Assembly (NCBI GenBank): GCA_016704485.1
Contig: JADJAA010000001.1
Coordinates: 1,554,824 to 1,618,823, forward strand
Direction of reading: 5' to 3'
DNA length: 64,000 bases
Origin: Flavobacteriales bacterium
Lineage (GTDB): Bacteria; Bacteroidota; Bacteroidia; Flavobacteriales_F; PHOS-HE28
Of the stretch, positions 17,621 to 36,434 are shown one piece after another (position 1 is the stretch's first letter; each line of letters starts with the position of its first letter). Made by a program: the position numbers and the translations under genes. The notes beneath the pieces were generated by a model that was given only the letters and a program-made list of their open reading frames with translations, was not told where the DNA came from and ran no database searches.

Positions 17621-20600
17621 TCAAGCACTGCGCTCACCCGGCTGTGCGTTCCCTTGCACCCACTCCACTACCGAGATGATCTTATCCTGATCATTCTCAT
17701 TCGGGAATAGGCCGAAGATCCCTTCTTGGTGTAGGTCCGTGAACGTTGAACCCGGCTCTGCGAGCATGCGTTTGTCGATCACGCCGTTCACCGTGAGGTG
17801 CCGAATGATGGAATCGATGAAGTGGATCTGCGTAGCACTGAAGATGGAGCCGGACAAGAATTCGCCGAAGGCTGCTTTTGCTGCGCCTTCATCAAGGCCG
17901 ATGATGCTGCGAATGAAATAGCCTAGTGGCCGTTCCTCGCCAAGTTCCTTCATCAAAGCCTCCTTCGTGCCGCGTTCGTCTCCATCGAACAGGATGCGTT
18001 CCAGTTCCACTAGCTCAGCGGTCGTGATCGGCTCATTGGTGTATAGTTTGTGAATGGTAAGCTGGTGTTTGTGCGAGCGGATGAACTCCTCTACACGCAT
18101 CCGATAGCTACGCATGGTGTAGCTACCTGGCATGGAGATGATATCCTCACCCTCGCTCACCAACTCATCTCTCAGGTCCGAGTATACCACTTTGCGTTCC
18201 TCGCGCGGTATCAAGCGCACTAGATCGCGCAATTGTTTTCGTGTGAATTCCAAGGCTTCCAGACCGAACACAGCGGCTCGTTGTTGTTGATCATTTGCGA
18301 CATCAAGAACTGCTTTGATCGCTGGATACCGCTCCTGCACTACGGGAATGTTGGAGAGCCGGGCAAGCTGTGTGGCGGTTGAGGCCAACGTGCGGAACAG
18401 GCGATCTACTGACGGCGCCTCTTGGGCCACAGCAATTTCCAGATCGAGCATAAGTAGGTCAAATCGTTTGGCCAGCTCGTCCTTGTCCGGTAGTTCGATC
18501 AAGTGACCAACGGTCTCGAACAGATCACTGATCCCGCTTTTTGATAACGCATTCCATGCGGTACGTTCACGGTAGTGATCGAGCACACGTTGCGCAGGAC
18601 GAATGCGCACGGTGTGCCGCAATTCCCAAAGTGCCTGGACCCAACTATGCGCACTATTCAAAAGCTCAACGCGTAGTGCTTGATCTTTTGGTACCTGATG
18701 GGCTGGTTCACGCAGTTGTTCACTAAGTAGGATAGTTGCTTCAAAGATCCGTTGCGATAGGCTGGGGGAGCGCACAGGTTCAATGCCTTCCGGCCGCAGG
18801 TTGAAGAAGCTGTAGTTGCCACAGAGATCGAAGATCCTGAAGTTCTCCTTGTGCTGGCCGGGACCGAACAGATCCGGGCATAAGCGTGTGCCGCGGCCAA
18901 CCATTTGCCAGAACTTGGACTTGCTATAGACCGGTTTAAAGAACACCAAGTTCACGATCTCAGGAATATCAATACCCGTATCCAACATATCCACACTCAC
19001 GGCGATCTGTGGATACCGGTCCTTATCACTGAAATTATCTATGATGCTCTGGGAGTATTGCTCCTTACTGTGTACCACCGACATGAAATGCCCACCGTAC
19101 TGCGGGAACTGATCTTCAAAACGGTTCTGTATGGCCCGGGCATGGTCTATGTTCCTTGCAAAGACAACGGTCTTGCCCAGCTTCTCACCACCTTCCACTT
19201 TGATCCCGTTCTCCATCACATAGGCCAACACCTGATCGATGGTGTTCGAGTTGAAGAGCCAGTTATTGATCGCGGGCGCTCCGATCTCTTCGGGTATATT
19301 CCCTTGGTCGTCCCGGAAGGTCTCTTCGTAATGTGTCCTATCGCTCTCACTCAGGTCATCGTAGCGGATACCGCGTTGCAGAAAGCCGAAGTCCACTGCT
19401 TTGCCAATGGGCGGCACCAGAAAACGATCGGCTACGGCCTGCCCTAATTCATAGAACGATGTCGGGTTATGCTCTTCGCAATCGAACAAGGCATAGGTAT
19501 CCCGATCCCCTTGGTCGTGTGGTGTTGCAGTAAGGCCGACCAACAAGGAATCGAAATAGGTGAAAATAGCACCGTACCGATCGTACACTGAGCGATGCGC
19601 CTCATCCACAATGATCAGATCGAAGTGACCGACACCGAAGGTCTTCACATCATCACTCCGCACTTGGTCCACGCGGTTCATTACCGTGGGGTAGGTGCTG
19701 AAGACCACCCGTGCGCTTTCATCATAGCGCTGTTTGGTGAGATCCAATGTGGTAACATTCGGCAGGTTCTTCTCAAAGGCCCGTTTTGCCTGTGTGACCA
19801 AGGCATTGCGATCAGCGAGAAAGAGCACACGCTTCGCCCAATTCGCTTTCAGTAGAAGGTCCACTAACGCGGCAACGGTACGCGTCTTGCCAGCCCCAGT
19901 GGCCATTACGATCAATGCTTTTCGCTTAAGACCGCGCATGCCATCTTCATCCACCCAACTTTCTGCAACCCGCTTGATCGCTTGATGTTGGTAATAGCGT
20001 TCCACGATCTGCTCATCGATCGGCACATGCCGAATGTTCACACGACCGATACGCCGATCAACGACCCGTTGCAATTCGTCCCGCGTGTAAATGCCCTGTA
20101 CAGCGCGTGGACCATAAAAGGTGTCATCCCAGATCCACGTATCGAAACCGTTGCTATAGAATATCACCGGGCGCTGTCCGGTCATGCGTTCCAGGCAATC
20201 AGCGTAAAGGCTTGCTTGCACACGGCCTTGTTGGGCATCGTGGGTGGTGCGCTTGGCCTCTACTACGGCCAGCGGTTTACCATCTGCACCCCAGAGCACG
20301 TAATCTACCTTGCCGTTGCCGTTGGGATTGGTGCTCAATGGCATCCCTGTTACCGGGTATTCGATCACGTTGGATGCGGCAGGGTCCCAGCCTGCTTCGC
20401 GCAACAGTTCATCAATGAAGAGTAACCGTGTATCCGCCTCCGAATATTCAGAAGCAGGTATGGGTATGTTCTCATGGCGCTCCTTGCGCTCCTGGATCGC
20501 TGCCAGGCGTTCTGCCAATATCTGCTTTTCTCCTTCTAATTTCAACCGTTGCTCGCGCTCGGTCTCCATCGCTACACGTTGCGCTTCATAACGCTCCTGT

Positions 20601-21079
20601 AACTGTTGAAGCTCCGCGCTGTTCGGAACTTCCTTCACTTTCACTTGTACTATGAGTGCCTCCTCTTGGAATGTTCCTACCTCGATGTCGAATGCGCTGT
20701 ACGTACGACCCATCCATTTCAAGAACCGGAACAAGAGGCGCAATGAGGCTACGCTCTGGCTCTCCACCACCTTCTTATCATGCGCAGCGGCATTGCCGGT
20801 ACGCCGGATGTACTGCAGGTCGATGTAGATGGGTGGTGGTATCAGTACCCGGAAGGACCGTTCATCCATCAACGCGCTCAACTGGCTGTTGTAAGGGCGC
20901 TGTAGGTCACTGTCGTTATCATACAGCCAGTGCACGGTACGTTCCAACGCACGGCGGGCATACACGGCAGAGGCGATCGGTGCGGCCAAGGCATACCGCT
21001 CCGCGTCCATGGCCTCCTTCGCAATGGAGGGCCACTCTTCAACGAGGAAGCGGAAGTTGCTCGGGGTGCTCAACGACAT
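17621..21079 (-). CDS. hsdR: Type I restriction enzyme R subunit (EcoEI/COG4096-like, with EcoEI_R_C C-terminal domain)
   Basis: 1152 aa. The N-terminus is SNFRFLVEEWPSIAKEA. The PD-(D/E)XK nuclease motif is GKVDYVLWGADGKPLAVVEAKRT. The SF2 helicase motifs are VMATGAGKTRT and LIIVDEAHRS. A long C-terminal helical domain is present. Confidence 0.8.
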   Translation of the reverse strand: MSLSTPSNFRFLVEEWPSIAKEAMDAERYALAAPIASAVYARRALERTVHWLYDNDSDLQRPYNSQLSALMDERSFRVLIPPPIYIDLQYIRRTGNAAAHDKKVVESQSVASLRLLFRFLKWMGRTYSAFDIEVGTFQEEALIVQVKVKEVPNSAELQQLQERYEAQRVAMETEREQRLKLEGEKQILAERLAAIQERKERHENIPIPASEYSEADTRLLFIDELLREAGWDPAASNVIEYPVTGMPLSTNPNGNGKVDYVLWGADGKPLAVVEAKRTTHDAQQGRVQASLYADCLERMTGQRPVIFYSNGFDTWIWDDTFYGPRAVQGIYTRDELQRVVDRRIGRVNIRHVPIDEQIVERYYQHQAIKRVAESWVDEDGMRGLKRKALIVMATGAGKTRTVAALVDLLLKANWAKRVLFLADRNALVTQAKRAFEKNLPNVTTLDLTKQRYDESARVVFSTYPTVMNRVDQVRSDDVKTFGVGHFDLIIVDEAHRSVYDRYGAIFTYFDSLLVGLTATPHDQGDRDTYALFDCEEHNPTSFYELGQAVADRFLVPPIGKAVDFGFLQRGIRYDDLSESDRTHYEETFRDDQGNIPEEIGAPAINNWLFNSNTIDQVLAYVMENGIKVEGGEKLGKTVVFARNIDHARAIQNRFEDQFPQYGGHFMSVVHSKEQYSQSIIDNFSDKDRYPQIAVSVDMLDTGIDIPEIVNLVFFKPVYSKSKFWQMVGRGTRLCPDLFGPGQHKENFRIFDLCGNYSFFNLRPEGIEPVRSPSLSQRIFEATILLSEQLREPAHQVPKDQALRVELLNSAHSWVQALWELRHTVRIRPAQRVLDHYRERTAWNALSKSGISDLFETVGHLIELPDKDELAKRFDLLMLDLEIAVAQEAPSVDRLFRTLASTATQLARLSNIPVVQERYPAIKAVLDVANDQQQRAAVFGLEALEFTRKQLRDLVRLIPREERKVVYSDLRDELVSEGEDIISMPGSYTMRSYRMRVEEFIRSHKHQLTIHKLYTNEPITTAELVELERILFDGDERGTKEALMKELGEERPLGYFIRSIIGLDEGAAKAAFGEFLSGSIFSATQIHFIDSIIRHLTVNGVIDKRMLAEPGSTFTDLHQEGIFGLFPNENDQDKIISVVEWVQGNAQPGERSA

Positions 21080-21301: not shown

Positions 21302-22063
21302 TTGCGATCGCCATTTTTGGTCGTAGGGCTATGCACGGCGCAACAAGATGGACCAACCGAGGAGGAGCAGCCAACAATTATCACGGCGGAACAACTGCAG
21401 GACTTTAATTCGGTAGTGCCCGGCATGGGTCGACAGATCCCGGGAATATACTTGTCCAACTACGGGCTTCTGTGTTACCACTTTGGGGATGATGGCACAT
21501 TCGCATCGCGCGACTTGAATGATTCCGGTTGGGTCGCAGCCGGTTCATGGTATGCGCCCATCACGTTGCCAAAGGAACAATTGGACACTGCGCAAGCCCT
21601 GTGGGTGCGGTACCATCTTCTCTGCGACAGTTCCCTGCGCGGTAGCCCATTGACACTAAGTTTGGGATCCATTGCCGGTATTGAGATCTTTTTGAACGGC
21701 CATCGGTTGGTGCACGTCCGGGAATTGCCGCCGGTTGTTCATGATCTTGATCAACCAATTTGGGACACGCTGCGGCGCTTTACCCTACCGATCACATTCG
21801 CGTGCCAAGGCGAACCAGAAGTGCTCGCTATTCGGATAGATCCGGCAAGGAATGGAATTCCCTACCCCACTTTGCACTATACGAACTTCGCCTACAACGT
21901 ACAGCTGTCCGCGATGCACTATGGTGTCTTCATCGGGGTCAACGCCATCATCTTTTGCTCGCCTTGGTCCTCTGGTCTTTGGACCGGAATGATAAGCAGT
22001 GGTGGCTACTGGCCCTGCTGGCCTTCGTTACAGGATCAGGGTATGCGCCAAGTTGACCAGTGA
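21302..22063 (+). CDS. 7TMR-DISM extracellular (DISMED2-like) sensor domain; probably the N-terminal part of a single frameshifted gene with 21999..23375
   Basis: 253-aa ORF ending in a first TM-like segment HYGVFIGVNAIIF. The downstream ORF, in another frame, supplies 6 further TM helices. That gives 7 in total, as in 7TMR-DISM receptors. Confidence 0.5.
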   Translation: MRSPFLVVGLCTAQQDGPTEEEQPTIITAEQLQDFNSVVPGMGRQIPGIYLSNYGLLCYHFGDDGTFASRDLNDSGWVAAGSWYAPITLPKEQLDTAQALWVRYHLLCDSSLRGSPLTLSLGSIAGIEIFLNGHRLVHVRELPPVVHDLDQPIWDTLRRFTLPITFACQGEPEVLAIRIDPARNGIPYPTLHYTNFAYNVQLSAMHYGVFIGVNAIIFCSPWSSGLWTGMISSGGYWPCWPSLQDQGMRQVDQ

Positions 22064-23375
22064 GATGGGCTTGTTGGGTTTGCCGTGGCCCACCATCCAG
22101 GTCATTGGCATTATTGACAAGATCCTCCTTCTATGGCCTATGTATGTGCTTATCATGGTCTTGTGGCGCATGCTAGGTGGGTTATCAAGTCGGCGCGCCT
22201 TTTGGCTCACCTTCGGTGTCTTGTTCGTTTCGGCAACCAGCGCTGGCCGCTTGTACTTTTTCGGGAAGATCTCCTGGTCATTTTCGGAGATCACGGGGGA
22301 ATACAGCATAGATGCAGGTTTGTCCGATGATCAGTGGCCACTTTTGGTCGCACTGGTGGTTGGTGCGGTACTGCGCTATTCCATAGCGCTCTGGTTCGCG
22401 ATCGAATTGATCCGACTTGGCATTCGCCTGGTGCGTAAGAAGGGTTTCGGACGTTGGATCGGGGCAGGGGCGCTTGTGTCCAGTCTGTTGAGTTTCCTCT
22501 TGACGTGCTTCGGCCTGGTCACTGAAATACCATCTACGACATGGCTCACACTTTCCGATTATCTCGCCTATGTTGCTGTGCCGGTTTCAGTCGTCATTTA
22601 TCTGGCCGTCACTGCCGCTCAAAACAACAAGCTGGTAGCGCGTCAACGGGATGATCTTGATCGCGAGGTGGACGACCGTACCGCCGAACTTGTAGCGGAG
22701 AAACAAGCGGTGTTGCGCGAGAAAGAACGCAGCGATGAACTACTCCTCAACATCCTGCCATCCGAAGTGGCGGAAGAACTAAAAGCCAACGGTTCGGCAA
22801 AGGCGCGGGACTTCGATCCCGCCACCATCCTGTTCACCGACTTCAAAGGCTTCACGGAGCTATCCGTGCAATTAAGTGCTCAGGATCTGGTGGCCGAGAT
22901 CAATACGTGTTTCGAGGCGTTCGATGGGATAATTTCCCGGTACGGTGTGGAGAAGATCAAGACCATTGGCGATGCTTACATGGCGGCAGGTGGCGTGCCT
23001 GATCCTCTGCGCGGATCACCGGCAGGTGTTGTAGAGGCCGCGTTGGAGATGCAGGAATTCATGGTCAGGTACAAAGCGCAACGAACAGCCTTGAACAAAC
23101 CGGCCTTCGAGATGCGTCTCGGTGTTCACACCGGCCCAGTGGTGGCGGGCATCGTGGGTGTGAAGAAGTTCCAGTACGATATCTGGGGCGACACCGTGAA
23201 CACGGCCAGCCGCATGGAGAGCAATAGCGAAGTGGGCCAAGTAAACATCTCGCAGAGCACCTATGAACTGGTGAAGAACGTGCCGGGACTTGCCTTCACA
23301 TCGCGAGGCAAAATACCAGTGAAAGGGAAAGGAGAGCTGGAAATGTACTTCGTAAAGAGAGGGCCGGTCGCATAG
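21999..23375 (+). CDS. 7TMR-DISM_7TM membrane domain + class III adenylate/guanylate cyclase catalytic domain
   Basis: There are six hydrophobic helices, followed by a coiled-coil and the cyclase core FTDFKGFTELS...KTIGDAYMAAGG...GVHTGPVVAGIVG...WGDTVNTASRMES. Confidence 0.75.
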   Translation: MVATGPAGLRYRIRVCAKLTSEMGLLGLPWPTIQVIGIIDKILLLWPMYVLIMVLWRMLGGLSSRRAFWLTFGVLFVSATSAGRLYFFGKISWSFSEITGEYSIDAGLSDDQWPLLVALVVGAVLRYSIALWFAIELIRLGIRLVRKKGFGRWIGAGALVSSLLSFLLTCFGLVTEIPSTTWLTLSDYLAYVAVPVSVVIYLAVTAAQNNKLVARQRDDLDREVDDRTAELVAEKQAVLREKERSDELLLNILPSEVAEELKANGSAKARDFDPATILFTDFKGFTELSVQLSAQDLVAEINTCFEAFDGIISRYGVEKIKTIGDAYMAAGGVPDPLRGSPAGVVEAALEMQEFMVRYKAQRTALNKPAFEMRLGVHTGPVVAGIVGVKKFQYDIWGDTVNTASRMESNSEVGQVNISQSTYELVKNVPGLAFTSRGKIPVKGKGELEMYFVKRGPVA

Positions 23376-23476: not shown

Positions 23477-24274
23477 CTATCCACTCCACTTCACGATATC
23501 CGCCACTACCGTCTTGTAGCTCAAGCCACGCAGCCGTTTCACCACCACGATGCGGGTATCTCCGTACTGCTCTGCGCGTTCGACCGACGAGTCAGTTGGT
23601 CTACTTTCCTTGATCCCCAGCCCCGTGCGAAAATGCGACCACCACGTATCGTTGGTGAGCACCACACAGAGTTTCGGCTGTAATTCCTCCAGTTCCATGC
23701 GCACCAGATCCACGCATTCGGGTCGTTGCAGGATGCGCTCGTCCACATCCGGATTGGCCACTTCGCCACGGTTCTGCGGTGCGATCTTGTAGAGGTTGGA
23801 CCATACCAGTTGACGGTTCCATTCCCACGCGTCCTCATTTGTGATGCCGTGCCGAACCTGCATCAGCTTGACCGTGGCCTGCCAGAAGAACGATGACCAA
23901 GCGCGGTAGTTCTTCTCCCGTTCGGTATACCAGGCTTGTTCTTCCGGGCTACACTTGTTCAAGGTAGTGTTCGTCCACAACACGTTCACCCAATCCAACG
24001 GGGAGTGGTCTTTGAAGGGTTCGTTGGAGTAGCGCTTGCTCTCTTCTATGCGGCCCCTCGGTACTGCCTTCGTGAAGTCCCACTCCGGGTGCCAACCACC
24101 CACGGCCTGGCCGTAGACCAGCACATCAACCGGTTCATTCGTTCGCGTACCGATGCTCGGATAGAAGTCTGTGAAGTGGGTGCGTTGCGGAAAGGTGCGC
24201 GCCAGTCGACGTTGAAAGGCTTCCAAGTGTTGCTGGTAGGCGGCGTTATAGGTTGGTGAGAGGGTGCGATACAT
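23477..24274 (-). CDS. Hypothetical protein (cassette-like gene flanked by direct repeats, between hsdS and the cyclase gene)
   Basis: ORF 23477..24451(-). The first 59 codons read through repeat copy 2 and look non-coding (Arg/Gly/Ser-rich). Probable start MYRTLSPTYNAAYQQHLEAF at 24274. No family recognised. Confidence 0.5.
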   Translation of the reverse strand: MYRTLSPTYNAAYQQHLEAFQRRLARTFPQRTHFTDFYPSIGTRTNEPVDVLVYGQAVGGWHPEWDFTKAVPRGRIEESKRYSNEPFKDHSPLDWVNVLWTNTTLNKCSPEEQAWYTEREKNYRAWSSFFWQATVKLMQVRHGITNEDAWEWNRQLVWSNLYKIAPQNRGEVANPDVDERILQRPECVDLVRMELEELQPKLCVVLTNDTWWSHFRTGLGIKESRPTDSSVERAEQYGDTRIVVVKRLRGLSYKTVVADIVKWSG

Positions 24275-24302: not shown

Positions 24303-25448
24303 TTAGTTCCCCAACTCCCCCCGGAACGCCCCCTGCAACAAACTCCCGAACAAGCCCTCGCTCTGGTGTAAGCTTGCTGCAATGCAGGTGCGCTGCTTTT
24401 GGATGTTATGGAGTAATGTTCCGAACCGTTCCTGCGCTTTGAGTGGAACAAGTGGAATACGCATTCTTCGGATCTCTTCTGTTGTGATATTCTTGAAGAT
24501 GGCTCCCACCGACTTATCGCTGACCCCTACGGCGAGCATATTCAGATAATGGTAAATGAACCTCAGGTCAAAGCCTTTGTCAAAGTCACGAAATCCTGCA
24601 AATCCATCGTGTATGCAACAGTCGACCATCAGGATCGCTGGCAGGCCTGGCTTCCCACTTACAGCCATCACCAAGTCACCACGTTTCATTGGACGACTGC
24701 GCTGTGAGCCTTCAATCGTGAGTGAATCGATCTGAGGTGTCACATACATCCCATCACGGGTCAAGTCTGCAACCATTAGGCGAGGCACGGGACCTCCAAA
24801 GTATCGCGCATCACCCTGTGGTCTTGGACTGCTCCCACGGACGACCTCACACAACGAACCCAAGTCTACAGTTTCCCACCCCCTCTCATTCCGCACCGGA
24901 TCCCCGAACAGCTCCAAGAACAGGCTCTTGGCAAGTTGGTCGTAAACCGCCAAGGTTCGCCGGTCGTTGGCCACCAGCGCCTGCGCCTTGTCCAAGATCG
25001 CCGCGATGCGACGCTGCGTGGGGAGGGCGGGCGGAGCAAAAGGTAAGCTGCGGATATCTTCTATCTTGAAGCCTTTCACCGTCGCTCCGTTTCCACGCGA
25101 AATGAAGTAATTCTCTTTCGCAAATAGAAAGTAATAGAGATAGGTCTGGTCAACCTTGCCATTTATAACAAGCGCCTTCAGATCCTGATTGAATGCCATC
25201 GGCACGTTCGTGATCGACATGCGCCCAAGAGCCATGCGTGTTGCAATCAATAACGTTCCGGCTGGAACTATCTGTGTCGCACAATTATCTACACCGCGTT
25301 CAGTGATCGACTCGTACGTCTCCGAAATATGCTTTGATGTAAGATCCTTCACCGTAGCCCATGGGACATCACCTTCCCAATAGCCCTCGATATCGCGATT
25401 AGGAGTACCACCACCAAGTATCTGGATATAATTGCCCAGCACGCTCAT
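24303..25448 (-). CDS. hsdS: Type I restriction-modification specificity subunit (two TRDs)
   Basis: 381 aa. Two target-recognition-domain halves are each followed by the conserved HsdS helix LPTQRRIAAILDKAQAL. Its start overlaps the hsdM stop by 4 nt (25445..25448). Confidence 0.8.
   Translation of the reverse strand: MSVLGNYIQILGGGTPNRDIEGYWEGDVPWATVKDLTSKHISETYESITERGVDNCATQIVPAGTLLIATRMALGRMSITNVPMAFNQDLKALVINGKVDQTYLYYFLFAKENYFISRGNGATVKGFKIEDIRSLPFAPPALPTQRRIAAILDKAQALVANDRRTLAVYDQLAKSLFLELFGDPVRNERGWETVDLGSLCEVVRGSSPRPQGDARYFGGPVPRLMVADLTRDGMYVTPQIDSLTIEGSQRSRPMKRGDLVMAVSGKPGLPAILMVDCCIHDGFAGFRDFDKGFDLRFIYHYLNMLAVGVSDKSVGAIFKNITTEEIRRMRIPLVPLKAQERFGTLLHNIQKQRTCIAASLHQSEGLFGSLLQGAFRGELGN
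24305..24395. repeat. Direct repeat copy 2 (partner of 23383..23470)
   Basis: See copy 1. It lies immediately downstream of the hsdS stop (24303) and upstream of the proposed start at 24274. Confidence 0.6.
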
Positions 25449-27004
25449 TTCAACAACGCCTCCAATTCGTCCAACAATTTCACACGGTCGGCGGCCAATT
25501 GGCGCAGGCCGGGTTCTCCCTTTTTGCCGTTGATCAGCTCGGCGGGCGTGGCATACTTCACTTGCTCGTACACCACCTCCTTGTAGCGGTTTATGCTGAG
25601 GTCCCAGTTGTTGGCCTTCAAGTCCGCAAAGGGCACCAGAAAGCTCTGGTCGGTTCGTGCACGTTTGCTTTCACCTTTCGCACCGAAGCGCGCTAGGATG
25701 TCGGCGATGTTGCTTTTCTCGTGCAGCGTTTTCGCTCCCTTGGTGGGCTCGGTGTATTGGAGTTCAAGCTGTTCTTCGGTGAGTTGCGGTGTGCGCTTAT
25801 CATCCAACGAGAAACCGTCGGCACGCATGTCGTAGAACCACACGTTGTCGGTACCGCCGCTATCGGTCTTGGTAAAGATCAGCACCGCGGTGCTCACCCC
25901 TGCATAGGGTTTGAATACGCCGCCGGGCATGCTGATCACCGCTTGCAATTGCTGGCGTTCGATCAGTTCCTGCCGCAGTTGCTTGTGCGCCTTGCTGCTG
26001 CCGAAGAGCACACCATCGGGCACGATCACAGCTGCGCGGCCACCTGTGCGGAGCATGCGCAGGATCAGACCTAGGAAGAGCAACTCGGTCTTCTTGCTGC
26101 TCACTGTGCGCAAGATCGCAGGGTCCACAGCGTCGTGGTCCAAGCTGCCTTTGAACGGCGGGTTCGCTAACACCAGCGAGAAGCGCTCACTGATGTGGCC
26201 TTGCTCTTTGCTAAGCGCATCCTGCCCGATCAGTTGCGGGTGCTCAATGCCGTGCAACATCATGTTCATGGCACCAATGCGCAACATGCTGGAGTCGAAC
26301 TCGACCCCGGTGAAGAGGTTGGTGTTGTAATGCTCGCGGAACTTCTTCTCGTGGAAGCTGTCCGGGTGCGTGCGCCGTATCTCTTCGCTTGCCGCCACCA
26401 AGAAACCGCACGTGCCGGCACTGGGATCGCAGATGGTATCGGTGGGTTGCGGAACCATCAGTTGCACCATCATGCGGATGATGTGGCGCGGTGTGCGGAA
26501 CTGGCCGTTGCGTCCTGCCGTAGCGATCTTGCCCAGCAGGTATTCATAGAGGTCGCCCTTGGTGTCGCGGTCGGCCATGTCCAGCGCGGCGATCATTTGC
26601 ACGGCGCGGTCCAGCAACCGCGCGGAGGGGATCATGAACGTAGCACCCTTCATGTGCTCACTGAACACGCTGCCCTCGCGCCCCATCTGCTTCATGAAAT
26701 CGAAGACCGTGAGGTTATCGTTCTTCGCATCAGGCCGCGTAAAGAGCGCGAACAATGTATCCGGGTCCTTGTCCTTGAAACTGCTCCACCGCAACGCCTT
26801 GTACTTGGGCGGGTAAATGGGATCCTTGATGGGCCCACCGAGCTTGGCGCTCTGCTTCTCTTTGGTGGTCTGGATCTCATCCATCCGGCGCAAAAAGAGC
26901 AAGTAGGTGATCTGTTCGATAACCGTGAGCGGATTGGCGATGCCGCCAGTCCAGAAGGCCTCCCAGAGGCGGTCGACGTCGGAGCGGAGTGTTCCGTTTA
27001 TCAT
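25445..27004 (-). CDS. hsdM: Type I restriction-modification N6-adenine DNA methyltransferase subunit
   Basis: 519 aa. It has the HsdM N-terminal domain, GQFRTPRHIIRMMVQL, motif I DPSAGTCGFL, motif IV LANPPFKG, and the C-terminus AAVIVPDGVLFGSS...AVISMPGGVF. Confidence 0.85.
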   Translation of the reverse strand: MINGTLRSDVDRLWEAFWTGGIANPLTVIEQITYLLFLRRMDEIQTTKEKQSAKLGGPIKDPIYPPKYKALRWSSFKDKDPDTLFALFTRPDAKNDNLTVFDFMKQMGREGSVFSEHMKGATFMIPSARLLDRAVQMIAALDMADRDTKGDLYEYLLGKIATAGRNGQFRTPRHIIRMMVQLMVPQPTDTICDPSAGTCGFLVAASEEIRRTHPDSFHEKKFREHYNTNLFTGVEFDSSMLRIGAMNMMLHGIEHPQLIGQDALSKEQGHISERFSLVLANPPFKGSLDHDAVDPAILRTVSSKKTELLFLGLILRMLRTGGRAAVIVPDGVLFGSSKAHKQLRQELIERQQLQAVISMPGGVFKPYAGVSTAVLIFTKTDSGGTDNVWFYDMRADGFSLDDKRTPQLTEEQLELQYTEPTKGAKTLHEKSNIADILARFGAKGESKRARTDQSFLVPFADLKANNWDLSINRYKEVVYEQVKYATPAELINGKKGEPGLRQLAADRVKLLDELEALLK

Positions 27005-27017
27005 GGGGTGAAGATGG

Positions 27018-28226
27018 TCAATGTTTGGTGATGGTGGTAAATTCCCATTTAGACTGTCCGTTCAGTTCGACTTGTTTGACTTGGCCGGAAACGAGGTCGC
27101 CATCCACAAGGCTGTGTAGTTTTATCAGATCCTTGTTGATGTAGGCATCGCCAGCATGGGCGTAGGTGTTATCGTTGCGTTTCTTGACCACGACGCGGCC
27201 CAGTTCTTTGGTATCACCGTCGAGTAGGGGAACTCCGTCGCTGCCTACCGCTTCCTCGTGTAGCCAGGTTCGGTTCGCCTTGGGGTCTGGATACTTTGCT
27301 GCGAACTTCTTGAACCAGACCAACACGTCCATGAGCTGGAACACGATGGTGCTCAAGAGGTAAGGCGTTACACCATGCTCGTGTAGTGCTTCGAGATTGT
27401 CCAAGCTGTAATTGGAATCCTCAGCGGTCTCGTCCGCATGCGAGCTTTCGCTGGTTACCCGCAGAATATTGTCCAGTGCATCGGCAACGATCCGGGGCAT
27501 CATCGGGCGGTCACACTTCAAGGCCACCGTGGCCGAAGAACGGCTCGGATAAAGCACGCGCTCGCCCCGCAGGAACAGTGCTGACAAGCGTTGGTTGACC
27601 CTCGGCTTTACAAGGACATCGGGTAGTAACCCGTGCCGATGCGCGGCATAGAAGAAGTGCTCCACTACCTGACGCAAAGGATTCATGAATAAGCGATCAC
27701 TACCGGACTTGTCCCCGCGATCCACAAAGCGCAATGCGTCCATGAACATAGGGTCGGCAACGGCATCCAAATAAGGAACTTGGAGCACTGCGAACACATC
27801 GGCATACCTATCACGAAGCGCTTGCTCGTTGCTTCGATCAACAAGGCTCTGTAGTTCCGCGTATAGGTCCTTCTCGTTCCCTTTCAAGTACCGCCGCTCA
27901 TCACGACGGTTCTTTGTTGCACCTTCGTCAAAGCCGGTATTGATCACATACGGAATATGAATGTTCGCTCCTTTCCATTGGTCCAGATCCCTGCGGGCTT
28001 CATGCAGGTGGTCGATGTCCTCGGTGGGTGAATGTTCATCCACCTGCCCTCTGGCATCGAGGATCAAGGCTTTGAAACGCTTTTCTCGGATCGGTTCCTT
28101 AGCCTCGGCCCAGGTCTTGAACCAAGTCACTTCGAAACCGTGCGCGACCGCCTTAGCAATTTGGGCTTTGGCGTATGCTTCATCGTCATCTACTAAGGCG
28201 ATCGGAACCAGGTCAAACAGTGTCAT
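27018..28226 (-). CDS. Response-regulator receiver (REC) domain protein with an uncharacterised ~280-aa C-terminal (effector?) domain
   Basis: ORF 27018..28289(-). Start at 28226 gives MTLFDLVPIALVDDDEAYAKAQIAKAVAHGFEVTWFKTWAEAKEPIREKRFKALILDARGQ, with an acidic pocket DDD and a phospho-acceptor-like D in ILDARG. The remainder has no recognisable family. Its start overlaps the stop of the upstream kinase gene by 14 nt. Confidence 0.65.
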   Translation of the reverse strand: MTLFDLVPIALVDDDEAYAKAQIAKAVAHGFEVTWFKTWAEAKEPIREKRFKALILDARGQVDEHSPTEDIDHLHEARRDLDQWKGANIHIPYVINTGFDEGATKNRRDERRYLKGNEKDLYAELQSLVDRSNEQALRDRYADVFAVLQVPYLDAVADPMFMDALRFVDRGDKSGSDRLFMNPLRQVVEHFFYAAHRHGLLPDVLVKPRVNQRLSALFLRGERVLYPSRSSATVALKCDRPMMPRIVADALDNILRVTSESSHADETAEDSNYSLDNLEALHEHGVTPYLLSTIVFQLMDVLVWFKKFAAKYPDPKANRTWLHEEAVGSDGVPLLDGDTKELGRVVVKKRNDNTYAHAGDAYINKDLIKLHSLVDGDLVSGQVKQVELNGQSKWEFTTITKH

Positions 28227-30909
28227 GCGAAATGGGAAGGTCAATGGTGAAGTGGACAAACATTTGAGTGGATACAGCTTCCCGGTCAAATGGTATCCAA
28301 TGATTCTCGTCTATACGTTGATCGCGTTCAAAACTCGATCGGTACTTGTCATCGCTCACTGGCAGGTTACCCGACACGAACTTTCCGCCGTGGTTGGCAA
28401 TGATCCGATCGATCAGATAGCCGCCTATGCCATTGCCCTTTTTCATGTCCAGACGCTTGCCAAAGGTGATGAAGTGCTCATGGGTAAAACCTTCCGGAAA
28501 GGGTTTGCCGTTGTTCTCGATGGTGATAACCAATCGCGTTCGTTGAGGTTCAATACGCGTTGATACCCTCACCCGTACGACCAATTGTTCCTGATCCGAT
28601 CGAAGGCCGTGTTTGGCCATATTGATGAACAAGTTCTGGATGACAAGTGCGAACTGTTGTTGATCGACATGTGCGATCACTCCTTCAGTGGTTTCTAGTC
28701 CAGCTTCACATTCGAAAATGACCATAAGCGCTTTCACCTGGTCGGCAAGTCCGCGCAATTCCGTTCGGAACAGTCGACGAAGGTCGATGGGCACTGGTCT
28801 TAGACTCTCCTTATCTGATCGGATCACCGCATTGATCAATTGAAAGAGACCGCGCATGCGATCCAATCCACTATTCATTGTATCTAGGGCGGTGGTGATC
28901 GTAGACTTTTCAACTGGGCCCAAACTGTTGAGTACTGCATGGATCTCGGCCATGGGTTGCTCCAGAAGCGCCACCACCGGGCGGAAGCTGTGCTCCACTG
29001 CACCAAGGATCTGCCACTCATCAGTGGAGAGGCCATGCTGTTTTTCCTGCCTAGCGATCTCCTCCTTCTTCGCCAATAGAATGGATTCCTTCCGTTCGCG
29101 AACAATGCGCAGTTGATCCTTGAGTTCGGGTAAGCGAACCCGAATTCTCAGAACGTCTGCTTTGGCTATGAAAGCGATCGTACTTCCTTGGTGGTATGCG
29201 TCGAGCTGATCTTGGATCGTGGGCGTTCTTAGTTCTGTTGCGAGGTATTCGGTATTAGCACGAGCCGCATCCACACGGAACATGAATACATTGCTTCCCA
29301 CGGCGATCGGTCCATCTACCGGGTCGAATAAGGTCGGCTTCAACTTTCCGCCCACCCGTGCAAGTAGCAGTGCTGGCACATCCAATCTCTTCAGTCCCTT
29401 CTTGACAGAACCGGTTTCATGTTGCCCATCACGCGCCGTGCGCCTCATGTCGAGGACATCCGTTGAAAGCTCGGAGACCTGGAAGAGCGGCAGACCGGCG
29501 AGGTCGCCCATGGAGAGGATATCGTCCGAAAGCACGGTGCCGAGTTCAACCACGTCCACACCATCCGCTTCGGCCACGATATGGGCTTGTTGAAGCAGGC
29601 TGGCAAACCGACTCATGCTCCAAGACACATGCTCGTCGGAACGGATGTCAGAAACCTTCACGTCCAAAACACCTTGTAAGGTATAAGTGCTATCCAACGC
29701 CTGCAGCACGCTGCTAACATCGAGTGTTATTTCGGATCGCGTCTTGTATGTGACATGCAAACCCGCATCCACGAATCGGACAGGCGCATTCGTTGGCCGT
29801 GATCCATTCAAAACAATGATCGAGGTCTTTATCCCTGAGTAGGGTGTGAAGGATCCTGCTGGCAACGAGATCACTGCTTCGAGCAACCCTAGGTCAAGAA
29901 TCTGTTTGCGTAGATGCGCTCTGTTGATGCCGAACAACATACTCTCGGGCACAAGGATCACCGCCTTCCCCTCGGGTGCAAGCCGCTTGAGGATCTGGTT
30001 GATCGCTATCTCATAGGGTTCTATCGCGCGTAGCCTTCCTTCCTCTTTCACTCGACCACCGAAAGGTGGTGCACTAATGCAATGCGTATACTTCTTGTTG
30101 GAAGCACCGGGTGCTGATGGTTCGTTCAAGGCGGCGTTCAGGTCTGCCCCGAGAATACGTGCTTGCAGCGTATTGAAGAAGAATGCGAATTGGTTGAAGA
30201 ATACCGCGTCGAGCTTTACAGAATGTGGCGCACGCGCTGCGAGCACTGCTGGCAATACGCTCGCATCCGCAGCTGGGTCGAATACCTCTTCCACGTCTCC
30301 GAGCAGCCGCGCCATAAGCATTGCAACGGACCATGGCGTACAGAACTGGCCCATGTGACTATCGCGCAAGAGGAGGCTACGCATTTCTTCCACATACTCG
30401 ATCGGTTCCAAACCCGCTGATGCCATGAGAAAAAGCTCAGTTTGTACTGGGCTTGTTGCCAGTGCGCCGCCATTTTTAAGAAGATACGAATGCTGCTCCC
30501 CAAAGTCCTTAAACTCCTCTGCCAATTCATTCAAGGTGGACCATAATCCTTCTCCTCTTTGAGCGATCGTAGGCAACACTCCTGCTGGGCGCACGGCCAA
30601 GGCATAAATGAGTGCCAGCTCCAAGCCAACGGTCTGCGCGAAGGGCATGGATCGTAGCGCATTGCGCAATTCCCATGCGTGGGCCTGAAAAAAACGGACC
30701 CGGTTCAACATACGTTCTGGATCCAACTGTAAACTACCGTCATCGGATATACTAACACGCCCACCAGACAACTCCACCTCAGCAAGCAAGCTCGATGGCT
30801 CAACGTCCTTCTGGCTCAATAAGACCTTGACGATATTACAGACACCCTCCAAAGTATCCGAGCCGTTCTTCAGGCGAAGGGCACATATTATGGCGTCTAT
30901 CAGTTTCAT
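28213..30909 (-). CDS. Fusion protein: HsdM-like N6-adenine MTase domain (degenerate catalytic motifs) + HsdS-like target-recognition domain + HisKA/HATPase_c histidine kinase
   Basis: 898 aa. It has an HsdM N-terminal helical domain. Motif X is GQFCTPWSVAMLMARLL. Motif I is degenerate, VFDPAADASVLP (no GxGxF). Motif IV is CISAPPFGG, APPF instead of NPPF. The HsdM C-terminal region is AVILVPESMLFGINRAHLRKQILDLGLLEAVISLPAGSFTPYSGIKTSIIVL. The HsdS-like conserved helix is VRLPELKDQLRIVRERKESI. The H-box is AVEHSFRPVVALL. The GHKL ATPase region is LFINMAKHG (N-box), ...IENNGKPFPEGF...GNGIGGYLIDRIIANHGGK (G1/G2). Confidence 0.75.
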   Translation of the reverse strand: MKLIDAIICALRLKNGSDTLEGVCNIVKVLLSQKDVEPSSLLAEVELSGGRVSISDDGSLQLDPERMLNRVRFFQAHAWELRNALRSMPFAQTVGLELALIYALAVRPAGVLPTIAQRGEGLWSTLNELAEEFKDFGEQHSYLLKNGGALATSPVQTELFLMASAGLEPIEYVEEMRSLLLRDSHMGQFCTPWSVAMLMARLLGDVEEVFDPAADASVLPAVLAARAPHSVKLDAVFFNQFAFFFNTLQARILGADLNAALNEPSAPGASNKKYTHCISAPPFGGRVKEEGRLRAIEPYEIAINQILKRLAPEGKAVILVPESMLFGINRAHLRKQILDLGLLEAVISLPAGSFTPYSGIKTSIIVLNGSRPTNAPVRFVDAGLHVTYKTRSEITLDVSSVLQALDSTYTLQGVLDVKVSDIRSDEHVSWSMSRFASLLQQAHIVAEADGVDVVELGTVLSDDILSMGDLAGLPLFQVSELSTDVLDMRRTARDGQHETGSVKKGLKRLDVPALLLARVGGKLKPTLFDPVDGPIAVGSNVFMFRVDAARANTEYLATELRTPTIQDQLDAYHQGSTIAFIAKADVLRIRVRLPELKDQLRIVRERKESILLAKKEEIARQEKQHGLSTDEWQILGAVEHSFRPVVALLEQPMAEIHAVLNSLGPVEKSTITTALDTMNSGLDRMRGLFQLINAVIRSDKESLRPVPIDLRRLFRTELRGLADQVKALMVIFECEAGLETTEGVIAHVDQQQFALVIQNLFINMAKHGLRSDQEQLVVRVRVSTRIEPQRTRLVITIENNGKPFPEGFTHEHFITFGKRLDMKKGNGIGGYLIDRIIANHGGKFVSGNLPVSDDKYRSSFERDQRIDENHWIPFDREAVSTQMFVHFTIDLPISHDTV

Positions 30910-30971: not shown

Positions 30972-32234
30972 TCAAGCGACTTTCTCCAGTCGGTTTGTCG
31001 GCAGAAGTTGGGCAGCCATACGATCCATGACCTCCCATTCCGGACGTGTGTACGAGTTGCTCTCCGTGACCACCGGGATCCTGAATTCGCCCATGGCATC
31101 CTCGCGCATAGCCCATTGATCCTTCTGGTCGTAGAGCTTTGTTCCGGGCAAAAGCATCAGCGGCCAAGCCTTAACGTCCCTGCAGCCTTTGGATAAGAGG
31201 TGGTCGATACTACGCTGGAAACTTTCCAAGGTCTGTCCGGGCAACCCGTAGATCAAACTCACTTCGAAAGGAATCTCGCGCTCCACAAGCTGTTCAATAG
31301 CAGCATCGACAAGATCCATCCGATTGGCGCGGTCAATTTTCTTGGACACTGCATGGTCCGTGGTCTGCAACCCGAACTCCAAGTGGAAGTTGGCTTGCGT
31401 ACAAAGGTCCAGGAATGCATTAACCTGTTGGCCTCGGATATTCTCAAAGCGCGATTGCAGGGTGAAGGTGGAGCGCGTACGGAGTTGAACGATCTCTTGC
31501 ATTATATCCAGGCACTCCTTCCCAGCGTTGAAGATGGGGTCGAGTATGTTCACGCGTTGCACACGATGTTCAGTGAGAAATGCTAACTCTTTAAAGACTT
31601 TATCCAGTGGGTGCTTATGCACGCGGTGAGTGGCGAGGTCGCGGTGTGCGCAAAATGAACACCGGTAGGGGCAGCCGCGTTTGGTCTCCAACCGTACCAT
31701 ACCGGCTCCCATTGGTACAGGCAATTCGCCAGTGAGATACGGTGAGGCCAGTTGTGTGAAGTCCACTGGTACGTTCACGAACACGGGTTCGTCGGCATCG
31801 AGATGGTCCGTCAATTCGGCAAAGGCTTGTTCGGCTTGTCCGGAGATGAAGACCTGGCAATCCGGATACCGACGCAGCAATTCTGCTCGGTTCCCGTAGG
31901 TGACTTGATACCCTCCGAGGACCACCTTGCCAAGGAACCCAAGACGACGAAGCAATGCGATGATGCCATTGGTGAGGTACTCGTTCCAGATGTAAGCCGA
32001 GAGCGCGATGGCGTTAAAGCGGCTCACATCAAGCGCCGCGAGTTGCACTTCGAATTGCTCGGGTGTGGCCGTGCCGCCGTGTTCGAGCATGTTGATCGAG
32101 AGGTGTTCCACGTGCATCTGTCCACGCAGCCGTTCATTACTCCGTTGGTGTGCCAAGAGAGATGCGATCGCCAAGGGCTTGGTGATCTCACCGTGCCGGA
32201 TCAGGTCGAAGGATATGATGAGCGTGTTCGTCAT
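30972..32234 (-). CDS. B12-binding domain radical SAM protein
   Basis: ORF 30972..32282(-). There is an N-terminal cobalamin-binding-like Rossmann region. The radical SAM cluster motif is RGCPYRCSFCAH (CxxxCxxC). It sits 62 bp upstream of the MTase-kinase gene, which is co-oriented. Confidence 0.75.
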   Translation of the reverse strand: MTNTLIISFDLIRHGEITKPLAIASLLAHQRSNERLRGQMHVEHLSINMLEHGGTATPEQFEVQLAALDVSRFNAIALSAYIWNEYLTNGIIALLRRLGFLGKVVLGGYQVTYGNRAELLRRYPDCQVFISGQAEQAFAELTDHLDADEPVFVNVPVDFTQLASPYLTGELPVPMGAGMVRLETKRGCPYRCSFCAHRDLATHRVHKHPLDKVFKELAFLTEHRVQRVNILDPIFNAGKECLDIMQEIVQLRTRSTFTLQSRFENIRGQQVNAFLDLCTQANFHLEFGLQTTDHAVSKKIDRANRMDLVDAAIEQLVEREIPFEVSLIYGLPGQTLESFQRSIDHLLSKGCRDVKAWPLMLLPGTKLYDQKDQWAMREDAMGEFRIPVVTESNSYTRPEWEVMDRMAAQLLPTNRLEKVA

Positions 32235-32343
32235 TGGTCCTCGCCACCAAGGGTCTATATGGTTGGATAATCGCTCAACCAACGAACTTCCCTATGGCAA
32301 CGGACCAAAAGTCCCGGTCACCTGTGCAGTCTATCTGCACAGT

Positions 32344-33354
32344 TCATTTCGCGTAGTTCTTCTTCATTTCCATCACCCGCAAAAGCAGCGCTTGGCGTAG
32401 TTCTTCCGGCGCAATAACCTGTAGCCCTTCTCCATAAGATAACAACAAGGCTTGTAGCTCGTAGTTCAGCTTCACTTCTAAACGAATAGTCGCGCCGCCG
32501 TCTTTTCTCTTCACTACTTTCTGCGAACCGTGTATAGGCTTTGACTCCAAATAAGGCCAAAGTCTATCCGTGACTTGGATCTTGACAACAACAGCTTCTT
32601 GATCCGCAGGTACACTTACACCAACAACATCCTCAAAATACTCCGTGAAATCCACCTCATCGTTCGGTATGTATTTCACCTTACTGGGTACAATATCCCG
32701 GATCCGGTCCAAGGCCATATTGACAATACGCCCCTCTTCCTCAAGACCAAAAACAAACCAACGGTTGTTATACTGTTTCAAGTAATACGGATGGAGCAAC
32801 ACAATGCTAGGCGCATTTTGCTTGAAGCCTTGGTAAGATATTTCCAAGGCTTGCTCATTGATGATCGAATGAAATAATGTGGTAATGTGCTCGGCACCTT
32901 TCAAATACGGGTTCTGCTCAAACTCGATGACCTGAGCAGCCCCTTGTTTCAGCCCGAAACCAGCTTCCAACCGAGCAACTAATTCATCTACCCATTCAAA
33001 CTGCGGCATGCCCTTAAATCGGCTCAGCGTTAAGAGCGCCTCCTTCAATTGTTCCGCTTCGCTCTCGTTCAGCGGTCGCTTGTTGATAGAGAATTCAAGG
33101 TCACTGTACCGGTAAAAAGTACGCTTTCCGTCTTTGTGTTTCTCCAGCGGGATAGCCCATCCTTGTTCGCTCTCCATGTACTTGATGTCCTCGAAAACTT
33201 GGCGGCGGCTGATGCTTGCACCTGCTCCGGTGAACTCCTCCAACGCCATGTTGCAAGCTTCCATCAGGTCTTCGATGAAATACTCGCGCCCACGGTTCGC
33301 AAAGCAACGGTCCATTGTCTGATAGCGAATAAGGGCATTCTTATTTACGGGCAT
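32344..33354 (-). CDS. WYL-domain transcriptional regulator (N-terminal wHTH + WYL + C-terminal WCX-like)
   Basis: 336 aa. The WYL signature is LLHPYYLKQYNNRWFVFGL, with an N-terminal HTH-like region. It has BrxR/CapW-like architecture. It is the first gene of the co-oriented block 33354->24303. Confidence 0.75.
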   Translation of the reverse strand: MPVNKNALIRYQTMDRCFANRGREYFIEDLMEACNMALEEFTGAGASISRRQVFEDIKYMESEQGWAIPLEKHKDGKRTFYRYSDLEFSINKRPLNESEAEQLKEALLTLSRFKGMPQFEWVDELVARLEAGFGLKQGAAQVIEFEQNPYLKGAEHITTLFHSIINEQALEISYQGFKQNAPSIVLLHPYYLKQYNNRWFVFGLEEEGRIVNMALDRIRDIVPSKVKYIPNDEVDFTEYFEDVVGVSVPADQEAVVVKIQVTDRLWPYLESKPIHGSQKVVKRKDGGATIRLEVKLNYELQALLLSYGEGLQVIAPEELRQALLLRVMEMKKNYAK

Positions 33355-33487: not shown

Positions 33488-33900
33488 CGCTGCCAGCTGG
33501 GTGGTAACCTGCACCAAGCTTGATGGTACCACACACCAAGCTTAGTGGTACCCTGTGCCAAGCTTAGTGGTACCTTGCACTAAGCTTGATGGTACCCTGC
33601 ACTAAGCTTAGTGGTACCCTGCACTAAGCTTAGTGGTACTCTGCACTAAGCTTAATGGTACCCTGCACCCAGTTGGGTGGTACCCTCCACCCAGCAGGGT
33701 GGTACCCTGCACCCAGTTGGGTGGTACCCTGCACTAAGCTTAGTGGTACCCTGCACTAAGCTTAGTGGTACTCTGCACTAAGCTTAATGGTACCCTGCAC
33801 CCAGTTGGGTGGTACCCTGCACCCAGTTGGGTGGTACCCTGCACCCAGTTGGGTGGTACCCCGCACTAAACTTAATGGTACCCGACACCAAGCTCAATAG
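33488..33900. repeat. Tandem array of ~19 copies of a 22-bp unit GGTACCCTGCACTAAGCTTAGT (variant units GGTACCCTGCACCCAGTTGGGT)
   Basis: Read directly from the sequence. Each unit contains the palindrome GGTACC plus either the 10-bp palindrome CTAAGCTTAG or the near-palindrome CCCAGTTGGG. A ~90-bp higher-order block (A-A-A-B) is itself duplicated. There are no unique spacers. It is non-coding because the unit length is not a multiple of 3. Confidence 0.9.
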
Positions 33901-34287: not shown

Positions 34288-34758
34288 ATTGGTACATGGC
34301 CTTGTCCCGTAAGTACATGTACTTGTGCCTTTGGTACATGTACTTGTCCCGTGAGTACATGTACTTGTCCCGTAAGTGCATGTACTTGTCCCGTGAGTAC
34401 ATGTACTTGTCCCGTGAGTACATGTACTTGTCCCGTAAGTACATGTACTTGTCCCGTAAGTACATGTACTTGTGCCGTTGGTACATGTACTTGTCCCGTA
34501 AGTACATGTACTTGTGCCGTTGGTACATGTACTTGTGCCGTTGGTACATGTACTTGTGCCGTGAGTACATGTACTTGTGCCGTGAGTACATGTACTTGTC
34601 CCGTAAGTACATGTACTTGTGCCGTTGGTACATGTACTTGTCCCGTAAGTACATGTACTTGTCCCGTAAGTACATGTACTTGTCCCGTAAGTACATGTAC
34701 TTGTCCCGTAAGTACATGTACTTGTGCCGTGAGTATGTGTACCTGTACCATGTGTAAC
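34288..34758. repeat. Tandem array of ~22 copies of a 21-bp unit TACATGTACTTGTCCCGTAAG (variants GTGCCGTTGG / CCGTGAG)
   Basis: Read directly from the sequence. Each unit contains the perfect 10-bp palindrome GTACATGTAC. Because 21 bp equals 7 codons, all frames are open, which explains four overlapping artefactual ORFs in the track (34182..34788). Confidence 0.9.
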
Positions 34759-36426: not shown

Positions 36427-36434
36427 TGAAGAGC

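Follow-up and report, generated by a model that had tools for sequence, protein, structure and literature searches.

The field of defence systems has one main open question, how infection is sensed, and a locus in an uncultured Flavobacteriales bacterium poses it in a concrete form: what would a histidine kinase respond to when its input domain is the DNA-recognition module of a restriction-modification (RM) system, a sensor type not yet studied? The locus lies in a stretch of 64,000 nucleotides (contig JADJAA010000001.1 of assembly GCA_016704485.1, positions 1,554,824 to 1,618,823; below, the window), where a tight gene block on the minus strand encodes a sensor kinase, a response regulator and a type I methylase. 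The two open reading frames (ORFs) of the signalling pair, singled out in an original prediction made from the letters of the DNA, are both present on that strand at the coordinates given there (Table 1), and GenBank labels them 'N-6 DNA methylase' (the kinase) and 'hypothetical protein' (the regulator). Our reading of the pair is a defensive phosphorelay, linked to type I restriction, with an RNA-targeting effector as its output, a proposal to which we give a probability of about 0.45 and of which we infer both the trigger and the activity.

A sensor kinase derived from restriction-modification parts

The original prediction had placed an HsdM-like methylase, an HsdS-like recognition domain and a histidine kinase in one polypeptide, and this three-part architecture is borne out by Pfam, by PADLOC and by three blocks of similarity to known structures. 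Pfam matched the kinase to the C-terminal half alone of N6_Mtase (E = 5.7e-15) and to HATPase_c (1.7e-8), and the PADLOC model Specificity_I matched over residues 472-639. The blocks themselves were resolved with a profile of 19 relatives searched against PDB sequences: residues 179-451 resemble HsdM (7eew, the EcoR124 M subunit, 5.7e-23; 7bst_D, 3.5e-19), residues 543-636 resemble HsdS (5ybb_D, 3okg), and residues 614-863 resemble the dimerization and histidine phosphotransfer (DHp) and catalytic (CA) domains of HK853, EnvZ and other kinases. The helix LPELKDQLRIV, on which the HsdS-like target-recognition domain (TRD) had been predicted, occupies residues 593-603 and thereby falls inside the block that matched HsdS structures. 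The C-terminal part is, as had been proposed, a bona fide histidine kinase with a HATPase_c match and an H-box (EHSFRPVVALL, residues 639-649), in which AVEHSFRP aligns to GVSHDLRTP of EnvZ and to VVSHDLRNP of 8u4x, so that His640 takes the position of the phospho-accepting histidine. His640 is invariant across 19 clade members and 31 superfamily representatives together with the N/G1/G2 boxes (N763, N799/G801 and G827/G829), and Pfam detected HATPase_c in 19/19 clade members and Methylase_S in 11/19.

The methylase part keeps its fold and has lost its motifs. Aligned to the HsdM encoded next to it, the kinase reached an hhalign probability of 98.6% over 241 columns, which indicates an HsdM-type Rossmann fold and agrees with the complete fold of the original prediction; a working gamma-class N6-adenine methyltransferase it is not, as motifs I and IV are both degenerate. 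Motif I, AGTCGF in HsdM, reads ADASVL in the kinase (FDPAADASVL at 30253-30282) and contains no glycine, while D211, P212, A214 and D215 are invariant in the clade. Motif IV has changed from NPPF to APPF (30061-30072), and its asparagine is replaced in 19/19 clade members by A, I, V, M or K with PPF kept. Judged by these motifs, the methylase module is a pseudo-enzyme, predicted to be catalytically dead. Motif IV in the wider superfamily ranges from intact NPPF/NPPY to A/V/T/S/H/Q/M-PPx: the catalytic Asn has been lost repeatedly and independently (APPF, VPPF, TPPF, SPPF, HPPF), with PPF and the kinase boxes retained. P281/P282 and mostly F283, residues of the base pocket, are almost invariant.

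The recognition part differs from that of a type I HsdS, which has two TRDs: the kinase has one TRD (about residues 451-600) and one conserved S-subunit helix that runs on into the DHp helix. This TRD is not a copy of the TRDs of its own operon, since across 9 loci BLAST scored it no better against the HsdS of the same locus than against the HsdS of other loci. It is also far better conserved than HsdS, with 49-70% identity within subgroup A. As the two are unlike each other, the sensor cannot simply read the mark that the adjacent methylase writes. Sequence-specific DNA binding by the sensor is predicted and appears plausible.

The N-terminal residues 1-178 are the most variable part of the protein (28-38% identity within subgroup A). 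Superfamily relatives carry a HARE-HTH domain at their N-terminus by Pfam (P0205, 2.2e-8; P0217, 2.2e-13; P0206, 1.1e-5; P0252, 1.8e-6); the N-terminal region of the window's kinase, in which Pfam gave nothing significant, probably starts with a HARE-HTH-like domain. The kinase has no strongly hydrophobic segment (the maximum 19-residue Kyte-Doolittle mean is 1.66) and is therefore probably cytoplasmic.

A cognate response regulator and the spread of the pair

The regulator begins with the CheY-like receiver that had been predicted, complete with D13/D14, D57, T97 and K115. Its remaining C-terminal ~280 residues, which had been described as matching no recognisable family, could be assigned: they appear to form a HEPN-like helical domain followed by an S1/CSD OB fold. 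Pfam found the S1/CSD-like domain of TOTE conflict systems in 13/19 regulators, as many as matched Response_reg, and the OB fold is similar to the domain with which Rho binds RNA. Outside the receiver, R185 and H263 are the only residues invariant in all 27 regulators compared, which reach down to ~20% identity, a pattern that looks like an active site and makes them candidate catalytic residues. There is no contiguous Rx4-6H motif: the histidine of RQVVEH is not conserved, and R185 and H263 stand 78 residues apart. Foldseek returned no significant match for the regulator, no PADLOC model matched it, and it gave no DNA-binding or ANTAR-type output and no ATPase family match. A homology of the helical domain to the DUF4145 domain of HsdR was considered and dropped (hhalign probability 0.2%, HMM score no better than shuffles); the two motif patterns are alike by eye (RxxxE ... 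SH/AAH ... LxxW), which leaves an unproven lead.

That the two proteins form a two-component pair, as first proposed, is supported by their conserved catalytic residues, by translational coupling, by synteny and by co-variation. The kinase stop codon (28213-28215) falls within the regulator gene, whose ATG is at 28226, so that the two genes share 14 nt, confirming the overlap that had been reported. The original prediction had suggested looking for co-occurrence elsewhere, and a regulator of the family directly follows the kinase in 14/14 loci with downstream sequence (13 by sequence, one by position only). Pairwise identities of the kinase DHp/CA part correlate both with the receiver identities, at r=0.93 with a Mantel p=0.0002, and with those for the HEPN-like domain, at r=0.92, whereas the N-terminal and methylase half of the kinase correlates with the receiver at r=0.28-0.44 only. 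Between the window and locus L004 the methylase parts of the kinases are 64% identical and the TRD/DHp/CA parts only 14-29%. Because the DHp/CA part tracks the receiver and the methylase half does so poorly, the comparisons support a mosaic kinase, in which a cognate kinase-regulator unit would have been shuffled against the methylase half. By its motifs the pair carries the classical class I two-component features: the H-box histidine, the N/G1/G2 boxes, the receiver residues and cognate pairing. Cross-locus identities are 30-65% for the kinase, 22-80% for the regulator and 22-38% for HsdS, compared with 77-87% for hsdM (five loci) and 76-85% for the radical S-adenosylmethionine enzyme (rSAM) encoded upstream of the kinase; kinase, regulator and HsdS diverge fast, and hsdM and rSAM do not.

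The fusion is not a one-off architecture. A word-index search had returned ~20 homologues per protein and one genome among 185,579 species representatives, a picture that proved to be a sensitivity artefact: with a cutoff of E<=1e-30, an exhaustive profile search gave 1,137 clusters (50% identity). Among these, the 150 best are all 580-1,031 aa long and align in a single stretch across methylase, TRD, DHp and CA. We take 150 clusters as the lower bound of the family and 1,137 as the upper bound, as some lower-scoring ones may be plain HsdM, and the window's clade is a small branch of this superfamily of up to ~1,100 clusters. Viral contigs gave methylase-domain matches only.

A type I M/S pair stands beside the signalling pair in 12/13 loci, including L008, where the 813-aa HsdM belongs to an unrelated family, and plasmid pFA12 of a cultured carrier, Fulvitalea axinellae DSM 100852 (L096, NZ_AP025326.1, 8407-12159), where the type I system is convergent. 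On this plasmid the kinase (905 aa, WP_338396319.1, kinase profile 7e-126) is annotated 'type I RM subunit M' and the regulator (326 aa, WP_338396286.1, regulator profile 5e-56) 'hypothetical', and the pair adjoins the convergent type I RM system, which has an extra AAA ATPase. Several Flavobacteriales metagenome-assembled genomes have the kinase gene annotated as two fragments (337+575, 487+411 and 624+220 aa; the cluster of P0001 and L010 11357-14162), which could be assembly frameshifts or genuine decay.

Proposed mechanism and competing explanations

No named system of this composition was found in PADLOC (2023), NCBIfam (2026), Pfam or the full-text literature outside subscription-only sources, in line with the original prediction, which knew of none; nor does any PADLOC, NCBIfam or Pfam model cover the kinase or the regulator as a family. 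The nearest logic is that of Detocs, which showed that relays from a kinase to a receiver-effector can act as genuine defence systems and which shares with the pair a cytoplasmic sensor kinase signalling to a receiver fused to a non-transcriptional effector, the defence context and a modular effector (10.1101/2023.01.24.525353). The differences lie in the sensor, which in DtcA has TPR repeats (none by Pfam here) and here a probable HARE-HTH-like domain, a dead methylase and a TRD, and in the effector, which in DtcC is a PNP ATP nucleosidase or another listed killing domain and here is HEPN-like with an OB fold. A standalone buffer receiver (DtcB) was seen neither at 21-34 kb of the window nor in related loci, and the pair here is embedded in a type I RM operon, its PADLOC matches being to RM-type models only.

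In placement the pair is closer to PrrC and RloC. These are RNA-targeting effectors of the HEPN kind encoded inside type I hsd operons as a second line behind restriction; their N-terminal part is an ABC-type ATPase, and direct binding to the RM enzyme keeps them inactive. Common to both is an RNA-directed effector (predicted here) within a type I RM locus, and what separates them is that control here would run through a His-Asp phosphorelay and that the regulator has no ATPase domain. The pair lacks the features that define membership of Detocs and of PrrC/RloC, its logic being Detocs-like and its placement PrrC/RloC-like. The sensor taken alone shares its methylase fold, TRD and conserved helix with type I HsdM/HsdS and with the fused type IIG and type ISP enzymes. 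It departs from them in having lost motif I and the motif IV Asn, in its one TRD, and in ending in a histidine kinase, with no nuclease or translocase in the polypeptide.

In the defensive phosphorelay that we propose, the kinase would dimerise through a DHp helix continuous with the conserved S-subunit helix, and the dimer, with a pair of methylase-like lobes and a pair of recognition domains, would resemble an M2S1 methylase. Engagement of a ligand would shift the helix register through the S-helix/DHp junction and set off autophosphorylation at His640. The likeliest ligand would be DNA with the sensor's own recognition sequence, its target adenine flipped into a pocket that has kept PPF and lost the catalytic Asn and the SAM-binding loop; DNA is favoured because the sensor combines three DNA-related modules (HARE-HTH in relatives, methylase fold and TRD) with this retained pocket. 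The phosphate would pass from His640 to Asp57, and dimerization of the receivers would join two HEPN-like domains with Arg185 and His263 as candidate catalytic residues. The OB fold would hold single-stranded RNA, and RNA would be cleaved or sequestered, so that growth or the expression of phage genes would stop where restriction of the DNA does not suffice. The pair thus probably adds a signal-triggered second layer to anti-virus defence and, if the proposal works, links DNA-level and RNA-level immunity through a phosphorelay. It is the conjunction of an intact kinase and receiver, co-variation, translational coupling, the RM neighbourhood, WYL control and a dense defence island that leads us to this reading.

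Several observations weigh against it. The sensor's TRD neither resembles the TRDs of the operon's HsdS nor varies as they do, and the OB fold is missing in about a third of the sampled regulators. Neither a standalone buffer receiver like that of Detocs nor another antitoxin-like safeguard is visible. A real weakness is that a dead methylase gives no evident marking of self DNA at the sensor's sites, so that discrimination between self and non-self is left unexplained. Further, we infer phosphotransfer, DNA binding and RNase activity alike.

A bolder view, which we consider doubtful, is that the sensor kinases of the HARE-HTH/methylase/TRD/kinase superfamily read DNA directly: each would bind its own sequence, flip the target adenine into the methylase pocket that no longer catalyses, and convert the epigenetic state of this base into a phosphorylation signal that fires an RNase. 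The replacement of Asn by small hydrophobic residues in many members could favour N6-methyladenine in the pocket. If true, this would be restriction-modification logic without DNA cleavage and the first two-component sensor with a DNA sequence or mark as its ligand. It would also explain why the sensor TRD differs from the host HsdS, as the sensor would see only DNA methylated or unmethylated by a foreign programme.

Two-component systems mostly serve regulation, and the pair could do so too: its RM-derived sensor would monitor how the cellular DNA or the RM complex fares, as upon entry into a new host or DNA damage, and its regulator, a non-catalytic RNA binder made of the helical domain and the OB fold, would tune the translation or the stability of the hsdM/S/R mRNA for restriction alleviation or establishment control. 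The pair always immediately precedes hsdM-hsdS, in the same orientation and with gaps <=13 nt, which would suit such a role, as would an OB fold like that of Rho and a HEPN-like domain that departs from the canonical motif; that no buffer or antitoxin partner is present would fit a non-toxic output. We nevertheless hold this to be unlikely. The block already has a dedicated WYL regulator, and the response regulator has no DNA-binding or ANTAR-type output; R185 and H263 stay invariant down to ~20% identity in the manner of an active site, and the fast evolution of kinase and regulator is that expected in an arms race. The association with unrelated type I families and with the convergent RM system of pFA12 is likewise hard to reconcile with a cis-acting regulator of mRNA. 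The same range of partners would be natural for a guard, in which the dead HsdM/HsdS module, instead of reading DNA, mimics the cleft with which a type I methylase binds it, is bound by phage DNA-mimic inhibitors of the Ocr/ArdA type and switches the kinase on, so that the relay and effector of the defensive phosphorelay abort the infection once restriction is disarmed. Such logic has precedents in RM-linked PrrC, which senses Stp, and in PARIS, which senses Ocr, and it fits a module that diverges fast, has lost catalysis many times, catalysis being dispensable for a decoy, and has a TRD that need not match the operon's HsdS and never does. A pure surface decoy, however, would need neither the base pocket, in which P281/P282 and mostly F283 are almost invariant, nor the extra DNA-binding HARE-HTH domain of the relatives, and within subgroup A the TRD is among the better conserved parts (49-70%) and does not behave as a diversifying surface; we therefore regard a decoy as quite unlikely.

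The rSAM gene directly upstream of the kinase in 7/8 clade loci brings in a further explanation, under which the dead methylase and TRD would flip a base for the adjacent B12-radical SAM enzyme to make an unusual DNA modification, with the signalling pair as a checkpoint. A conserved rSAM beside a variable kinase mirrors the enzyme-specificity pattern of HsdM/HsdS, and distant rSAM homologues lie near other defence systems that contain N6-methylases. However, the rSAM does not compensate for the dead methylase as a general rule: motif IV is degenerate in the absence of any rSAM in L013, L017, L018 and L019, the clade locus L007 has no rSAM, nor do the 7 loci of the wider superfamily, and the family also occurs alone. 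This explanation strikes us as highly improbable. The defensive phosphorelay remains the reading that we favour: the large family, the conserved synteny, the cultured carrier and the point-mutant predictions (H640, D57, R185 and H263) make it directly testable, and it supplies a functional hypothesis for proteins that databases now label 'type I RM subunit M' or 'N-6 DNA methylase', as well as for their neighbours listed as 'hypothetical proteins'.

The gene block and its surroundings

Both genes of the pair adjoin a canonical hsdM-hsdS on the same strand with gaps below 15 bp, as originally described: 13 nt separate the regulator stop (27018) from the ATG of hsdM (27004), and hsdM and hsdS overlap by 4 nt. 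The proposed setting, an RM-derived sensor within a type I RM operon, agrees with the HsdM and HsdS profile matches of the sensor and with the neighbouring hsdM-hsdS, and the operon is itself part of a defence island. The notion of one type I RM operon has to be loosened in one respect, as hsdR is not contiguous with hsdS: the 264-aa gene and the opposite-strand cyclase lie in between (Table 1). This hsdR is probably the cognate restriction subunit of the block; it is 82% identical to the hsdR of L007, where hsdM is 87% identical to that of the window.

Table 1 Features of the window (nucleotide positions in the window; residues refer to the protein named)
Feature	Position	Strand	Matches
WYL/WCX (BrxR-like) transcriptional regulator, head of block	32344..33354	-	Pfam WYL 3.3e-10, WCX 1.7e-11; PADLOC WYL 1.8e-23
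B12-binding radical SAM enzyme (rSAM)	30972..32282	-	Pfam Radical_SAM 3.3e-13; PADLOC PDC-M51A 6.6e-117
Sensor kinase, 898 aa: N-terminal domain, HsdM-like methylase (predicted dead), one HsdS-type TRD, histidine kinase	28213..30909	-	
Kinase residues 1-178, variable N-terminal region	30376..30909	-	
Kinase residues 179-450, HsdM-like methylase fold, degenerate motifs	29560..30375	-	
Kinase residues 451-620, single TRD and conserved S-subunit helix (LPELKDQLRIV)	29050..29559	-	
Kinase residues 621-898, DHp helix with His640 (codon 28990-28992) and HATPase_c catalytic domain	28216..29049	-	
Response regulator, 402 aa: REC, HEPN-like domain, S1/CSD OB fold	27018..28226	-	
Regulator residues 1-125, receiver domain, D57 (codon 28056-28058)	27852..28226	-	
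Regulator residues 140-320, HEPN-like helical domain, R185 (27672-27674), H263 (27438-27440)	27267..27809	-	
Regulator residues 321-402, S1/cold-shock-like OB fold	27021..27266	-	
hsdM, canonical, motifs intact (DPSAGTCGF, NPPF)	25445..27004	-	Pfam N6_Mtase 1.6e-57 and HsdM_N; PADLOC MTase_I 1.7e-168
hsdS, two TRDs	24303..25448	-	Pfam Methylase_S 2.7e-31, two stretches
264-aa gene, no family match	23477..24271	-	
Adenylate/guanylate cyclase and preceding unannotated 253-aa ORF	21302-23375	+	Pfam Guanylate_cyc 7e-56; PADLOC PycC 1.2e-15
hsdR, EcoAI-like, N-terminal DUF4145	17621..21079	-	Pfam; PADLOC REase_I 2.7e-160
PsyrT/PsyrA	6850-10223	+	4.9e-287, 1e-124
1,610-aa helicase	10664-15496	-	
GmrSD/HEC-05 type IV enzyme	15720-17534	-	
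Septu pair	35458-38822	-	

At the head of the block, a homologue of the WYL regulator (39-53% identical to the window's) is found in 11 related loci, directly upstream of the kinase or of rSAM. BrxR homologues have been reported next to type I RM systems in 16% of cases (PMC9122601). The block resembles BREX and other operons controlled by BrxR/WYL in being headed by a WYL-WCX regulator, and differs from those of that study in its kinase/receiver pair, which is not described there among the regulated genes. The region immediately upstream of the WYL gene contains two tandem arrays. One (33501-33894) repeats the 22-bp unit GTGGTACCCTGCACCAAGCTTA ~18 times with a 132-bp super-period, is non-coding and begins 147 bp from the WYL start codon; the other (34292-34746) repeats the 21-bp unit GTACATGTACTTGTCCCGTAA ~22 times beneath overlapping ORFs of both strands. 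No such array occurs in 11 other related loci, and L007 has one of 21 bp x 16, ~1.3 kb upstream of its WYL gene. Rfam and tRNA scans found nothing, and a sigma-70 promoter/terminator scan gave fewer sites than shuffles, its model not covering Bacteroidota promoters.

The rSAM gene matches PDC-M51A of the PADLOC candidate system PDC-M51 almost end to end. The likeness stops at gene A, as kinase and regulator match no PDC model; no PDC-M51 model beyond A matched the scanned proteins of the window and of L001/L003, and we found no paper mentioning PDC-M51. Homologues of the window's rSAM begin at its residue 17, at about position 32234. Present in 7/8 clade loci (all except L007) and in 0/7 loci of the wider superfamily, rSAM is an accessory of the window's clade only. 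More distant homologues (49-56% identity) stand alone in other defence islands, one (L011 10001-11254) beside PglZ/SNF2 (BREX-like) genes and a 1,686-aa methylase-helicase, another (L012 10001-11257) beside a type I RM system and a TIR gene.

What lies between hsdS and the final gene is cargo that varies from locus to locus. In the window this slot is filled by the 264-aa gene, whose real start is Met60 of a 324-aa ORF and whose product has no Pfam, PADLOC, NCBIfam or PDB match; neither a core role nor a UDG-like nature could be upheld for it, the only homologue (59% identity, same slot) being in L001. Between hsdR and the genes on the side of hsdS, an insertion on the opposite strand consists of the 253-aa ORF and the cyclase, whose N-terminus has a weak SMODS-associated 4TM-like match.

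The block ends in some loci with hsdR and in others with a gene for a ~1,825-aa protein like TmtA of Tiamat (PADLOC TmtA 8.6e-144). The latter stands in place of hsdR after hsdM-hsdS in four loci, judged within their available sequence (L001 18663-22703, L003 15748-20090, L004 14499-16783 and the P0018 contig), where hsdM-hsdS are 77-82% identical to those of the window; TmtA may there partner a type I methylase in the place of HsdR. The window itself contains no TmtA or DUF2130, and its 1,610-aa helicase, which we compared with the TmtA-like protein of the relatives, has no similarity to it.

The block lies in an island that also carries PsyrTA, GmrSD/HEC-05, a Pycsar-like cyclase and Septu (Table 1). 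The 1,610-aa protein is a fusion of a DpdF/RecQ-like DEAD helicase with a UvrD/GajB-like helicase, and the PtuA of the Septu pair has an extra N-terminal PtuB/HNH-like region.

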